From a virus (Duplodnaviria; Heunggongvirae; Uroviricota; Caudoviricetes), in IMG/VR virus record IMGVR_UViG_3300047388_000185, positions 128,738 through 192,737 of that record: 64,000 bases of DNA; one strand, 5' to 3'. Made by a program: the position numbers and the translations under genes. Shown one piece after another: positions 50,006 to 52,318 of the stretch. Within the stretch, counting starts at the first letter, position 1. Each line of letters starts with the position of its first letter. The notes beneath the pieces were generated by a model. It did not search any database and was not told the origin of the DNA. It saw nothing but the letters and a program-made list of their open reading frames with translations.

Positions 50006-51004
50006 ATGAAATTCAACAATCTCCTCCTCGCTGCAGCCCTGACGGCGGCGGCAATGGCGACGGCGTTTTCCATTCCAACCCAGGCGGCAGATCTGCCGAC
50101 AATCGAAGCCACTTCTGGCGCGGACAAAGGCTCGTACGCCAAGTTCATGGGTGAAGTGAGCGACGTCTGTCATGAAGACGTGACCCTGCACATAACGCTC
50201 TCTCCTGGCGGCTCGGAGATGAACGTCGACCGGCTCAACCAGAACGACGCTGCCGTGGGCCTGGCACAGGCCGACTATCTCTGGTGGGCCAGCCAGACGC
50301 AGGACATGTCGACCATCAAGGTCCTGCTGCCGCTGTTCTCCGAGCAGCTGCACTTCGCCACGCTGCGTGAAAGCAAGCATATGGTCGGTGGCCATCTCGG
50401 CGTGGGGCAAAAGCCGCTCCAGCTGAACTCGGTCACGGACCTGCAAGCCGGCACCACGCTGGCAGCCTCGGGAGGGGCCAAGACGACCGCTCTGCTGGTC
50501 GCCAAGCAAGCTGGGCTGGGGTACCAGATGGTGCCGACCGAAACGAGCGCTGTGGCCCTCAAGATGCTTGTGGATGGCCAAGTCGATGCCGTGCTCGTTG
50601 TCGGGGCTCAGCCGATGGATCTGTTCCGCAACGCTCCGCCAGCCAGCAAGGCTTTGATCAAGTTCCTGCCCATTCCCGAGAACCTGCTGCCGGTGCTCAA
50701 GGGCTACTCCCCGGCCAAGGTAGGCTACTCCGGTATCGGTGATGGAAGCTCGGTGCAGACAGTGGCCGTGCAGTCAGATCTGATCACGCAAAACTACTCG
50801 TCCAAGCAAGCGATTGCCAAGTCGGTCCACGCTCTGAAGCAATGCCTGCTCGACAAGGCTCCCGACCAAGCTGGCATCGCCGGCCGTCATCCGGCCTGGC
50901 GTGCGGTGCGTGCGGATGCCGAATCCAAGTGGCCGCAGTGGGATGATCCGTTCTCGAGCTCGGCGCAGGCCGTGGCAGCGCCGGTCAAGGCGAAGAAGAA
51001 GTAA
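50006..51004 (+). CDS. secreted periplasmic solute-binding-like protein (TAXI-family TRAP receptor-like)
   Basis: signal peptide; IEATSGADKGSYAKFMGEV aligns to TAXI IATGGTGGVYY; ...LVDGQVDAVLVVGAQP aligns to ..DGQIDA.FVTAG.P; high GC. Confidence 0.45.
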   Translation: MKFNNLLLAAALTAAAMATAFSIPTQAADLPTIEATSGADKGSYAKFMGEVSDVCHEDVTLHITLSPGGSEMNVDRLNQNDAAVGLAQADYLWWASQTQDMSTIKVLLPLFSEQLHFATLRESKHMVGGHLGVGQKPLQLNSVTDLQAGTTLAASGGAKTTALLVAKQAGLGYQMVPTETSAVALKMLVDGQVDAVLVVGAQPMDLFRNAPPASKALIKFLPIPENLLPVLKGYSPAKVGYSGIGDGSSVQTVAVQSDLITQNYSSKQAIAKSVHALKQCLLDKAPDQAGIAGRHPAWRAVRADAESKWPQWDDPFSSSAQAVAAPVKAKKK

Positions 51005-51050
51005 CAACCAAGCCCTTCGGGGCTTGTCCTAAAACCAAAGAGGAAATAAC

Positions 51051-51974
51051 ATGAATTTCATTGAAAATATCGCCAAGTCTCCAGTCAAACTGGTACTCTA
51101 CGTCGCCGGGATCTTCACTGTTCTGATCCTGCTGGCCTCATGCTGGCCCGTGGCCTCGGTCCCGACCGGCTCTCGTGGGGTCATCACCGTCGGCGGTGCC
51201 ATCAAGGCCATCGAAGGCGAAGGCTTCACCCTGCTGGCACCGTGGCAGAAACTGACGCTTTTCAACATCCGTGCCGAGAAAGCGGATATCGAGAACGCCG
51301 AAGGGTCGACCTTCGACACGCAGCCGGTCAAGGTCAGCTTGACCGTACGCTACTCGATCTCTCCGAACAAGGTCTCGGAAGTCTACGAGAAGTACAGCCA
51401 TGACGGCGACTTGCAGAGCTACGTGCAGACGGCAAGCCAAGAAGTCTTCAAGGCCGTGACCAGCCACTACACGGCACCAGACTTAATCGCCAAGCGTTCG
51501 GACGTGTCTTCGGACATCTACACCGCCTTGACCAAGAAGCTGGCCATCTACGGCGCTCAAGTCATCAACATCGACATGCGCAACTTCTCATTCTCGCAGT
51601 CGTACATGGCGGCGATCAACGATAAGGTGACTCAAGAACAGCTTCGCTTGGCCGCCGAGAACAAGCTCAAGACGGTGGAATCCGAGCAGAAGCAGAAGGT
51701 AGCTGTGGCCGAAGCCGAAGCAAATGCCGTGAAGGCGACCGCAGATGGCGCAGCGTATGCCAAGGTCCAAGTGGCGACGGCCGAAGCCAAGGCTTTGACG
51801 CTCCAGGCCCAAGCCATCTCGGCCAGTCCGCAAGTGCTGGAACTGCGTCGCATCGAGGTCTCGAAGATCATGGCCGAACGTTGGGGCGGTGGTGTCCCGT
51901 CCGTCGTGACCGGCAACGGCGGGATTTTGCAAACGCTGGACCTGAACAAGGTCATGGCAACCAAGGAGAAGTGA
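51051..51974 (+). CDS. SPFH/band-7 (prohibitin/HflKC-like) membrane protein
   Basis: N-terminal TM; SPFH core (GSRGVITVGGAIKAIEGEGFTLLAPWQKL...VTQEQLRLAAENK) plus Ala-rich coiled-coil; high GC. Confidence 0.65.
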   Translation: MNFIENIAKSPVKLVLYVAGIFTVLILLASCWPVASVPTGSRGVITVGGAIKAIEGEGFTLLAPWQKLTLFNIRAEKADIENAEGSTFDTQPVKVSLTVRYSISPNKVSEVYEKYSHDGDLQSYVQTASQEVFKAVTSHYTAPDLIAKRSDVSSDIYTALTKKLAIYGAQVINIDMRNFSFSQSYMAAINDKVTQEQLRLAAENKLKTVESEQKQKVAVAEAEANAVKATADGAAYAKVQVATAEAKALTLQAQAISASPQVLELRRIEVSKIMAERWGGGVPSVVTGNGGILQTLDLNKVMATKEK

Positions 51975-52318
51975 TGACCAAGACCATCGAAGAAATCGCA
52001 CGGATCTGCCACGAGGTCAATCGTGGCATCTGCCAAGGCATCGGGGATGCCAGCCAGGTTTCTTGGGAGGATGCTGCCCAGTGGCAAAGAGACTCTGCCA
52101 TCGAGGGGGTGAAGTTCCGCCTGGCAAATCCTGACGCTGGCGGCAACGTCCAACATGACCAGTGGACAGCCTTCAAGTTGGCCGAAGGCTGGGTTTACGG
52201 AGAAGTCAAGGATGCGGACAAGAAAACACATCCCTGCATGGTTCCGTACGACCAATTGCCTCCTGAACAGAAGTTGAAGGATACGTTGTTCGTCGAGATC
52301 ATCAAGGCATTTTCGTAA
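51974..52318 (+). CDS. RyR-domain protein
   Basis: ICHEVNRGICQG...WEDAAQWQRDSAIEGV...AEGWVYGEVKDADKKTHPCMVPYDQLPPEQK matches the RyR domain signature; AGGAGA RBS. Confidence 0.55.
   Translation: MTKTIEEIARICHEVNRGICQGIGDASQVSWEDAAQWQRDSAIEGVKFRLANPDAGGNVQHDQWTAFKLAEGWVYGEVKDADKKTHPCMVPYDQLPPEQKLKDTLFVEIIKAFS

Follow-up and report, generated by a model that had tools for sequence, protein, structure and literature searches.

We analysed a 64,000-nucleotide stretch of the Caudoviricetes record IMGVR_UViG_3300047388_000185 from IMG/VR (positions 128,738 to 192,737 of that record), here called the window, with emphasis on three consecutive genes on its + strand. These genes, g1, g2 and g3, span positions 50006-52318 and encode a TAXI-like periplasmic binding protein, an SPFH/Band-7 protein and a small RyR-domain protein, respectively. 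A first-pass annotation had described them as a high-GC moron island. Comparison with related contigs does not support a single, recently imported island, and the high GC content at third codon positions (GC3) is a conserved property of the individual genes. We consider it probable that the block is a junction between a conserved membrane module, represented by g1, and a hypervariable accessory slot, occupied here by g2 and g3, in the early or replication region of the phage genome, and that the three genes are accessory genes unrelated to one another.

Synteny and base composition of the gene block

Four relatives of the window, the loci L004, L005, L008 and L012, were found by exact-sequence look-ups of g1 homologs that are 51-54% identical to g1. 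A more distant relative, L019, in which the TAXI-like gene is 39% identical, came from a scan of IMG/VR. Together with the window, this gave six lineages for comparison. In the five closer lineages, the genes follow the same order: an array of DUF6197 genes, the TAXI-like gene, a variable slot and a metallophosphatase gene, with the ribonucleotide reductase (RNR) gene further downstream. In L019, the surroundings are different, and the TAXI-like gene is still found downstream of the gene for a membrane protein, denoted CC2TM, that is described below.

All six lineages have the TAXI-like gene in a syntenic position. SPFH occurs in four of them and RyR in two, each varying independently of the other. 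The slot holds SPFH and RyR in the window; RyR and two small genes in L004; a 124-residue gene, SPFH and a 346-residue gene in L005; two unrelated genes in L008; and an 85-residue gene, SPFH and two HNH endonuclease genes in L012. We found g1, g2 and g3 together at no other locus among those examined. Each of the three families turns up repeatedly in the phage collection, where we counted 10 records with a TAXI-like gene, 122 with SPFH and 298 with RyR.

The coordinates given in the first-pass annotation and the raised GC that it noted were confirmed. The GC content is 0.622 in g1, 0.579 in g2 and 0.539 in g3, compared to 0.495 in the window, and the 1-kb bin at 50001-51000 has the highest GC of the 64 bins in the window. 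The corresponding GC3 values (0.77, 0.77 and 0.67) are 2.3, 2.3 and 1.4 standard deviations (sd) above the per-gene mean of the window (0.52, sd 0.11). However, this enrichment is not unique to the block. The metallophosphatase gene that follows g3 has a GC3 of 0.68, the DUF6197 genes upstream of g1 are at 0.54-0.64, and some ten further genes of the window reach the same levels, e.g., those at 10600-11409 (GC 0.622), 39084-39539 and 3340-5862.

The GC3 values are, moreover, shared between lineages. All six have a TAXI-like gene with a GC3 of 0.67-0.78, and the GC3 of orthologs in the window and its relatives is correlated (rho = 0.73-0.78, p <= 2e-4, with 17-24 ortholog pairs per relative). 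High GC3 is retained in orthologs with 39-55% amino acid identity, and in every pair the synonymous divergence (dS) is at least 0.7, a value at which these sites have diverged heavily or reached saturation. The high GC3 therefore cannot be what remains of a recent import that has yet to ameliorate. High GC3 in a phage gene can thus be a stable, lineage-wide trait, and it is unreliable as a sign of recent import.

The TAXI-like gene is among the fastest-evolving genes, with 52-55% identity between orthologs and a ratio of nonsynonymous to synonymous divergence (dN/dS) of 0.26-0.28. SPFH and RyR are 85-86% identical to their orthologs, compared to a background of about 50%, and have dN/dS of 0.16 and 0.05, respectively. 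We considered the possibility that g2 and g3 had been transferred recently between phages. This was rejected, because dS in these genes is 0.7-1.4, and the 85-86% identity is attributed to purifying selection and codon bias.

The block had also been described as bracketed by a hairpin at 51008 and by terminators after g3. The structures are indeed present, but the hairpin directly follows the stop codon of g1 and lies between g1 and g2, and it therefore fails to bracket the block. The two hairpins downstream of g3 have a joint folding energy of -24.7 kcal/mol (z -3.7), and the second of these is likely to be an intrinsic terminator that closes a g2-g3 unit. The ATG of g3 shares one base with the TGA of g2, and g3 is preceded by a strong ribosome-binding site, AAGGAGA; from their sequence, g2 and g3 are translationally coupled. 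A scan for sigma-70-like sites, which would miss phage-specific promoters, found none upstream of g1 or g2.

The idea that g1, g2 and g3 were acquired as one moron island from a GC-rich host, and act as an envelope or signalling cassette, gains some credit from their adjacency on the same strand at the GC maximum of the window, from the g2-g3 overlap and the terminator behind g3, and from the existence of cellular TAXI-like copies in GC-rich Burkholderiales (Achromobacter and Comamonas). It is already contradicted by the synteny of the TAXI-like gene and the independent gain and loss of SPFH and RyR. Furthermore, the three genes occur together nowhere else, the GC-rich stretch runs into the conserved metallophosphatase gene, equally GC-rich genes are scattered over the window, high GC3 persists in orthologs with saturated or heavily diverged synonymous sites, and a hairpin parts g1 from g2. 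We regard an origin of the block as one such island as very improbable, and the junction of a conserved module with a variable slot as the better description.

A conserved CC2TM-sTM-TAXI-like module

In Ralstonia phage RP31 and Achromobacter phage Motura, the TAXI-like gene is preceded by two genes that encode proteins of about 255 and 45 residues. The same gene pair is found in front of the TAXI-like gene in Achromobacter genomes and in a betaproteobacterial metagenome-assembled genome. A tblastn search with the larger protein of the Achromobacter cassette identified its equivalent in the window with an expect value (E) of 3e-15. We denote the larger protein CC2TM and the smaller one sTM (Table 1).

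Searches with profile hidden Markov models (HMMs) showed that CC2TM and the TAXI-like gene are paired on the same strand, with CC2TM upstream, in 37 of 37 loci. These comprise 26 IMG/VR loci with a TAXI-like relative, on contigs of 33 to 524 kb, the phages RP31, Motura and phiRSL1, two bacterial loci and the window lineage. An sTM equivalent was found in 31 of the 34 loci scanned, in 25 by the automated procedure and in six (L019, L022, L025, L026, L031 and L032) by manual inspection or clustering; the other three loci, L023, L024 and L038, where no assignment could be made, are near-duplicates of L022. phiRSL1 also has an sTM. Members of the sTM family are 44-66 residues long, with a predicted N-terminal membrane helix, a linker rich in Ser, Pro, Ala and Gln and a conserved motif at the C-terminus, and their genes either follow CC2TM or precede the TAXI-like gene. 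Their C-termini elsewhere include DDSxMKSLKI, DSFKNFSM, SNKYKF and GDVNF.

When the neighbouring open reading frames (ORFs) of the 26 non-redundant loci were clustered, CC2TM, sTM and TAXI-like were the only shared genes, and no conserved permease was found within 4 kb of the TAXI-like gene in these loci. In about half of the loci checked, L019, L001, L002, L014 and L029 among them, the stop codon of the TAXI-like gene is followed by a stable hairpin or terminator, and the TAXI-like gene would therefore be the last gene of the unit. The window lineage differs in that about 5 kb separate sTM from g1, consisting of small ORFs, a spanin-like pair, a homing endonuclease gene and the DUF6197 array. 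We regard this DNA as an insertion into the module.

The CC2TM family is large, with 637 clusters at 50% identity, 503 of which match at E 1e-10 or better. It corresponds to phrog_27316, which has no assigned function. The window CC2TM is 81-89% identical to its closest relatives; dN/dS is 0.02 relative to L005 (89% identity) and 0.41 relative to L004.

Cellular copies were found in Achromobacter, Comamonas and an uncultured betaproteobacterium. The profile search of bacterial genomes yielded two loci only, which makes the estimate of the bacterial distribution a weak one. Together with the hosts of the module-bearing isolates, Ralstonia and Achromobacter, these cellular copies hint that the window phage may also infect a member of the Burkholderiales.

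In jumbo phages, genes of metabolism or transport come after the module. RP31 (L001 4918-6443) has genes for an ABC permease and an SBP_bac_11 binding protein there, Motura (L002 4953-7778) those for homospermidine synthase and glutathionylspermidine synthase, and phiRSL1 (L047 4380-6852) those for a nicotinamide mononucleotide (NMN) adenylyltransferase/Nudix protein and PncB.

The TAXI-like protein

Three observations back the start codon of g1: an AAGGAA ribosome-binding site, agreement with where its homologs start, and a gene call from the Joint Genome Institute (JGI) with the identical 332 residues. The N-terminus of g1 has a hydrophobic region, followed by TQA and then AD, which by eye resembles a Sec-type signal peptide with cleavage between these two motifs. 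An AlphaFold2 model calculated with 15 homologs had a predicted local distance difference test score (pLDDT) of 87.7 and a predicted template modelling score (pTM) of 0.80. When this model was compared to the Protein Data Bank (PDB) with Foldseek, the seven best matches were all TAXI proteins (E 2e-16 to 9e-14, TM-score 0.58-0.74), while other classes of binding protein appeared only from E ~1e-9. The TAXI entries matched by g1 are 4DDD, 1US4, 8U79, 8S4J, 9IBO and 9IBP, and a profile of the g1 family retrieved the same TAXI entries from the PDB sequences at E 2e-13 to 1.5e-11. In the PHROG collection, g1 matches phrog_6856. We regard g1 as a probably exported, periplasmic protein with a TAXI clamshell fold.

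The first-pass annotation had placed g1 in the TAXI TRAP solute-receptor family (TIGR02122). The fold and profile evidence for this is strong, but the scores of g1 itself fall below the curated cutoffs: 38.4 bits against TIGR02122 (cutoff 84.35) and 21.4 bits against PF16868 (cutoff 27). Distant relatives in the same subfamily do pass PF16868, with 48.6 bits for Motura and 31.6 bits for RP31.

In a profile alignment, the invariant g1 residues Y44, S70, Q88 and E113 align to Y45, S75, Q93 and E125 of the glutamate-binding TAXI protein of Vibrio, VcGluP, the side chains of which bind the alpha-amino and alpha-carboxyl groups of the ligand (PMC11574862). From these four retained head-group residues we infer an amino-acid-like ligand, and g1 probably captures a small molecule of this type. 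Several observations temper this assignment, in addition to the scores given above. The residue mapping is based on a profile alignment at only 15-18% identity, the VcGluP pocket positions S40, D157 and Y200 differ across the g1 family, and VcGluP H123 corresponds to F111 in the window g1, while most of the family has a histidine there. The family also has an invariant cysteine pair, C55 and C280.

Possible function of the module

A plausible but tentative interpretation is that the three proteins form an envelope system, made up of a coiled-coil protein with two membrane helices, a very small protein with one helix and a periplasmic tail for docking, and a receptor that has the TAXI fold and takes ligands of the amino acid type. 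Large and jumbo phages, as well as a few chromosomes of Burkholderiales, would share this system, which would have gone unrecognised so far. We envisage that g1, once loaded with ligand, would dock at the inner membrane, where the periplasmic tail of sTM would receive it, and would then act on a CC2TM oligomer. The outcome would be solute uptake or sensing, to the benefit of the infected cell, and g1 would work without a TRAP permease, as the last gene of an obligate three-gene module.

What we found for CC2TM weighs against this interpretation. It has no Pfam family, and a scan of 90 members gave only coiled-coil noise (a holin family in 5/90 and PspA in 4/90). The CC2TM profile had no match among the PDB sequences, and the structure model was poor (pLDDT 61). 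CC2TM also has almost no periplasmic surface, which leaves the route of a periplasmic signal unexplained. The best Foldseek matches of the model were Vipp1 and PspA, which were not significant (E 0.087). A PspA/ESCRT-III identity of CC2TM accordingly serves as a lead only.

A different possibility is that g1 is an auxiliary metabolic gene of the PstS kind, the product of which would fill the periplasm, dock on a host permease of the TAXI-TRAP or GltS type and boost the uptake of glutamate or a related amino acid, with CC2TM and sTM as accessory or unrelated genes. The TAXI fold and the retained amino acid head-group residues of g1 are in line with this, as is the existence of non-TRAP carriers such as GltS that pair with TAXI proteins (PMC12344293). 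So are the metabolic or transport genes next to the module in jumbo phages (the ABC genes of RP31, the polyamine synthases of Motura and the NAD salvage genes of phiRSL1) and the non-prophage chromosomal context of the cassette in the betaproteobacterial genome. However, docking on a host permease does not explain the strict co-occurrence with CC2TM (37/37) or the near-universal presence of sTM. A fast-evolving g1 (52-55% identity, dN/dS ~0.27) next to a near-frozen CC2TM would be odd if g1 had to dock on a conserved permease. On balance, we find this explanation rather unlikely.

The module might also serve in the control of the envelope, with CC2TM as a holin-like or membrane-remodelling protein and g1, via sTM, tuning the timing of lysis or superinfection exclusion, in analogy with RI and T, or Imm and Sp, of phage T4; SPFH would be an optional helper. 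In the window lineage, the module is interleaved with genes shaped like i- and o-spanins, one of which has a weak Rz-like match (E 0.0017), and the hairpin of CC2TM is Gly/Ala-rich like holin helices. Weak matches to the Phage_holin_3_6 and PspA models occur in a few members of the CC2TM family; in two of three other phages inspected, the SPFH gene has rIIA or rIIB nearby; and a copy of the module sits in a region of Achromobacter that resembles a prophage or an island. Set against these points, the homology hints are all below significance, the spanin-like genes accompany the module in this lineage only, the chromosomal copy among ordinary metabolic genes is a poor fit to lysis, and the conserved small-molecule pocket of g1 would be needless in a purely protein-level switch. 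A role in envelope control is thus doubtful. The binding-protein-dependent, three-protein system is our working model, with the reservations stated above.

The SPFH protein

The assignment of g2 to the SPFH/Band-7 family was borne out by a search against PF01145, with 91.5 bits at a cutoff of 23.6, and g2 matches phrog_200 at E 7e-46. It falls far below the HflK and HflC equivalogs (28.4 versus 159.4 bits for TIGR01933 and 24.6 versus 134.4 bits for TIGR01932). Residues 14-30 are hydrophobic, and the Ala-rich, helical C-terminus, which the first-pass annotation had read as a coiled coil, is also evident. We take g2 to be a bona fide SPFH protein with a predicted membrane anchor, which probably forms a ring or cage on the inner membrane, by analogy with other members of the family.

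We considered whether g2 might be a lipoprotein, since it has a lipobox-like cysteine, Cys31, in the sequence LASC. This motif is LISC in L005, and the cysteine is absent from L019. Lipidation was therefore rejected, and a plain membrane helix appears more likely.

The window g2 is 85% identical to its orthologs in L005 and L012 and about 70% (67-71%) identical to that in L019, whereas L004 and L008 lack it. SPFH is located just downstream of the TAXI-like gene in the window, L005 and L012; in L019 it overlaps the CC2TM stop codon (ATGA) and lies within the module. Because SPFH adjoins g1 or CC2TM in these relatives, it may act as a scaffold for the TAXI-like module. There was no SPFH gene near the module in the other 25 IMG/VR loci, however, and since the arrangement is confined to one lineage, the link between SPFH and the module may be coincidental. 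In other phages, SPFH genes are often found among early genes or those of nucleotide metabolism. Phage SPFH proteins are all without a demonstrated function (PMC13239085), and we found none in the literature searched. An exact-sequence look-up of g2 returned no record.

A RyDEP-family protein

The first-pass annotation had identified g3 as a 114-residue RyR-domain protein, and the peptide that it quoted is present in the translation. The domain is well supported: g3 matches PF02026 with 46.7 bits (cutoff 27.4, E 3.8e-12). The same annotation held that phage proteins with RyR domains are poorly understood, which is now outdated. A preprint from May 2026 (PMC13232231) describes gp78 of mycobacteriophage DyoEdafos, a PF02026 protein that was named RyDEP, and reports that phage PF02026 proteins cleave or sequester 2'cADPR and 3'cADPR, which are cyclic ADP-ribose signals, and thereby defeat Thoeris. 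Six of eight diverse phage homologs of RyDEP bound 2'cADPR/3'cADPR, and two non-catalytic homologs were nanomolar sponges with anti-Thoeris activity in vivo, while cleavage was found for the founder only, i.e., for one of nine characterised family members (PMC13232231). The earlier suggestion of Ca/nucleotide sensing was near in spirit with respect to its nucleotide part, the ligand being a nucleotide.

A phmmer comparison of g3 with the RyDEP structure (PDB 35TM, 35tm_A) gave E 5.8e-10, and BLASTP against DyoEdafos gp78 (GenBank MN234187) showed 35% identity over 78 residues (E 3e-14). The four ligand and catalytic residues of gp78, H75, W78, H100 and D117, which make up the catalytic dyad and the ligand contacts (PMC13232231), are all retained in g3 as H61, W64, H86 and D103, with identical spacing. 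We assign g3 to the RyDEP family as a cytoplasmic protein and predict that it acts against Thoeris by sequestering or cleaving 2'cADPR/3'cADPR, so that the Thoeris effector of the host would stay off. With cleavage confined to one of the nine family members that have been characterised, a role as a sponge is more likely than one as a glycosidase, two activities that sequence alone cannot separate.

The prediction is weakened by the two homologs, out of eight in the preprint, that failed to bind the signals, and by the preprint status of the source. The absence of NARP1-like Pfam matches from the ~50 window proteins scanned also counts against it; the neighbours of g3 are the SPFH and metallophosphatase genes. 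The homologs without 2'cADPR/3'cADPR binding leave room for a protein that binds another adenine nucleotide or has a structural or regulatory role rather than one in Thoeris evasion. The identity of only 35% to RyDEP, the annotation of one phage homolog as a minor head protein, and the lack of adjacent NARP1 genes, unlike in the founder, point in the same direction. On the other hand, the four residues are retained with identical spacing, six of eight diverse homologs bound the signals, with anti-Thoeris activity in vivo for two of them, and g3 is under strong purifying selection (dN/dS 0.05). Its variable presence is typical of anti-defence genes, and a NADAR domain protein, another ADP-ribose-related counter-defence candidate, is encoded in the same window. 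We consider a function outside of Thoeris evasion to be decidedly unlikely. As a RyDEP-family member, g3 would add a large phage of Gram-negative bacteria to this just-described anti-Thoeris family. PADLOC defence models had no match among g1, g2, g3 and four neighbouring genes.

Gene content of the window

The large ORFs of the window are all on the + strand and have functions in replication and nucleotide metabolism. The replication genes encode a primase (Toprim and zinc-ribbon), a helicase, a PD-(D/E)XK nuclease and a split family-A DNA polymerase; those of nucleotide metabolism encode ThyX, a class II RNR, dCMP deaminase and a MazZ-like dNTP diphosphohydrolase. A Thg1-like enzyme, a NADAR domain protein and an SLT transglycosylase are also present, and there are five tRNA genes. 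The source is a large phage of about 193 kb to which few isolates are related: its primase shares only ~30% identity with the primases of Vibrio phage D69 and Salmonella phage Arash, whose genomes measure ~180 kb. A DNA-level search of the phage collection with 49600-52600 gave short RyR-motif matches only and no related genome. The features discussed in the text are listed in Table 1.

Table 1. Positions of the genes and RNA structures discussed in the text (window numbering).
Feature	Positions	Strand	Description
g1	50006-51004	+	332 residues, TAXI-like
g2	51051-51974	+	307 residues, SPFH/Band-7
g3	51974-52318	+	114 residues, RyR domain
CC2TM	43978-44784	+	268 residues; predicted N-terminal two-helix membrane hairpin and cytoplasmic coiled coil; ~5.2 kb upstream of g1
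sTM	44806-44994	+	62 residues; predicted single membrane helix, Ser/Pro/Ala/Gln-rich linker, C-terminus ...GDANF
Hairpin	51009-51026	+	7-bp stem, UUCG loop, -14.5 kcal/mol (z -2.7), no U-run after it
Terminator region	52362-52399	+	small hairpin 52362-52375, then hairpin 52378-52399 with U-run
DUF6197 array	48079-49970	+	five tandem paralogs, directly upstream of g1
Metallophosphoesterase (metallophosphatase)	52530-53288	+	calcineurin-like; PF00149; phrog_246 (NinI-like phosphatase)
i-spanin-like protein	46248-46769	+	one predicted membrane helix, periplasmic coiled coil, ending ..PIPQEYL..
Lipoprotein	47630-47983	+	putative o-spanin-like partner; LSGC lipobox; specific to this lineage
QLxLF ORF	1491-1808	+
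QLxLF ORF	2361-2630	+
QLxLF ORF	20583-20873	+
QLxLF ORF	20881-21156	+
QLxLF ORF	21163-21441	+
QLxLF ORF	26059-27090	+
QLxLF ORF	39578-39838	+
QLxLF ORF	39828-40142	+
QLxLF ORF	40567-40800	+
QLxLF ORF	40800-41123	+
QLxLF ORF	41020-41463	+
QLxLF ORF	42851-43123	+
QLxLF ORF	43126-43410	+
QLxLF ORF	43395-43688	+
QLxLF ORF	43769-43945	+
QLxLF ORF	45302-45571	+
QLxLF ORF	45574-45879	+
QLxLF ORF	45879-46220	+
QLxLF ORF	53331-53705	+
QLxLF ORF	53710-54090	+

Next to the block, orthologs of the metallophosphatase in L004, L005, L008 and L012 are 64-90% identical. The three DUF6197 copies that were scanned matched PF19698 at E 2e-17 to 4e-13, and precomputed Pfam matches on L003, an identical contig, cover all five. 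L004, L005 and L008 have three to five DUF6197 copies at the same position, and L012, which is cut upstream, has at least two. A search of Rfam with 43500-54500 gave no match.

Between the two halves of the module, the proteins at 46248-46769 and 47630-47983 resemble a two-component spanin pair in their sequence features. The i-spanin-like protein has orthologs in L004, L005, L008 and L019, is located between the module halves in this lineage only, and had no match in PHROG. For its lipoprotein partner, the sole model support is a weak match of the L019 ortholog to phrog_456 (Rz-like spanin, E 0.0017). The two genes overlap in L019 (8550-9080 and 9077-9352), while in the window an HNH endonuclease gene and a 96-residue ORF lie between them.

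The family-A DNA polymerase is split into two ORFs, with another ORF between them (35485-36651, 36711-37829 and 37889-38557 for the three). The middle ORF, of 372 residues, had no Pfam or PDB match; it may represent a mobile element or belong to a split-gene arrangement. The NADAR domain protein (40094-40600) is a candidate for ADP-ribose processing and counter-defence. At 57529-58194, the window encodes the N-terminal domain of a MazZ-like dATP/dGTP diphosphohydrolase (PF18909), which may point to modified-nucleotide metabolism. The Thg1-like tRNA-His guanylyltransferase (PF04446, 8413-9225), which is unusual in a phage, is encoded close to the tRNA genes.

Two genes have a very low GC3, at 46801-47343 (0.26) and 56743-57246 (0.29), and the former encodes an Endonuclease VII/HNH homing-type nuclease (PF02945). 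Unlike the high-GC genes, these look like truly foreign mobile insertions. Mobile elements were also seen in the relatives. L004 has an IS605 OrfB/TnpB (Cas12f-like) gene just upstream of the DUF6197 array (6691-7845, minus strand), and the RNR genes of L004 (15010-17850) and L012 (6410-9025) contain inteins with LAGLIDADG or HNH domains; none of these are present in the window. A homolog of the 35-residue ORF that precedes the metallophosphatase gene in L004, L005 and L012 was sought in the window and is absent.

Small proteins with a C-terminal QLxLF motif

Among the 151 + strand ORFs of at least 50 residues in the window, 20 have Q[LF]x[LM][FWY] at their C-terminus, with at most three residues behind it, compared to none of the 97 minus-strand ORFs. 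The motif occurs 22 times anywhere in the + strand ORFs, and 20 of these occurrences are C-terminal. The variants are QLSLF(D), QLDLF(D/GD/E/Q), QLELF, QLCLFD, QLSLWD and QFDLFD. In L019, the ORF at 9339-9818 ends in ..QLTLFS. The last two ORFs of the set in Table 1 are tandem paralogs of ~125 residues that both end in ..PRQEQLSLWD; they had no family match, and multiple copies are kept in the relatives. QL[SD]LF is the canonical pentapeptide by which bacterial proteins bind the beta sliding clamp. The pattern suggests a large set of small phage proteins that are targeted to the sliding clamp. A PDB search with two uncharacterised window proteins, made in search of a phage sliding clamp, gave no match, and a literature search did not bring up such a proteome-wide clamp-motif pattern. 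The QLxLF set may deserve more attention than the high-GC block from which this analysis started.

Comparison with known systems

TAXI proteins have been assumed to be feeders of TRAP transporters. The phage-borne subfamily is instead locked to two uncharacterised membrane proteins, the families of which are numerous in metagenomes and lack annotation. If the proposed module is correct, it would represent a binding-protein-dependent device without a known transporter or kinase fold, either a minimal solute channel or a periplasmic nutrient sensor that tunes infection, lysis or exclusion. Should the proteins form a functional complex, the binding protein in the periplasm would be linked to the membrane in a novel manner, and the complex would define a new class of envelope functions in phages. 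For a TAXI protein, a partner of just two membrane helices would be without precedent. In the literature, we found annotation-level mentions only of TAXI proteins in phages.

The closest structural relatives of g1 are the TAXI-TRAP proteins VcGluP/VC0430 (8S4J, 9IBO), Thermus GluBP (1US4, 8U79) and the Ehrlichia immunogenic protein (4DDD). They share with g1 the two-lobed fold, a signal peptide, which is putative in g1, the GS..N and Q.D motifs and the four head-group side chains. In contrast, g1 is only 15-18% identical to them, its subfamily has a cysteine pair of its own and is always accompanied by CC2TM and sTM, and there is no fused QM permease near it in 37 loci. No permease was seen in the part of the window that was examined.

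TAXI-GltS of Bordetella pertussis (BP0403) is a TAXI protein that works with the non-TRAP carrier GltS (PMC12344293). Like g1, it lacks a TRAP membrane component and is genetically coupled to another membrane partner, and it comes from the Burkholderiales, the clade of the isolated phages that carry the g1 module. The partners are distinctly different, however. GltS is a Na+/glutamate symporter with at least 10 helices, whereas those of g1 are a two-helix coiled-coil protein and a 44-66-residue single-helix protein, with no carrier fold. BP0403 is also a multidomain, dimeric lipoprotein, while g1 is a plain secreted binding protein.

Among the periplasmic binding proteins encoded by phages as auxiliary metabolic genes, the PstS protein of cyanophages provides a parallel, in that a lytic phage carries the gene for a secreted solute-binding protein but not for the transporter that goes with it. 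Cyanophage PstS plugs into the PstCAB transporter of the host and has no dedicated phage membrane partners. Unlike PstS, g1 always travels with two phage-encoded membrane proteins.

The SPFH protein resembles HflK/HflC, QmcA and the prohibitin-family proteins of phrog_200 in having a Band-7 domain, a predicted N-terminal anchor and, at the C-terminus, a predicted Ala-rich coiled coil such as those by which rings or cages assemble. It differs from HflK/HflC in being a single gene rather than a pair, and it has no adjacent NfeD partner gene.

Finally, g3 and RyDEP gp78 are both small cytoplasmic phage proteins with a single R12/RyR domain (PF02026), and both are encoded by accessory genes that are variably present among related phages. 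At 114 residues, g3 is shorter than gp78 (138 residues), the identity is 35%, and the region around Q54 could not be aligned. The gene for gp78 is located inside a NARP1 operon for NAD synthesis (Adps and Namat), which is a feature of the founder and not of the family, whereas g3 is coupled to the gene for the SPFH protein.

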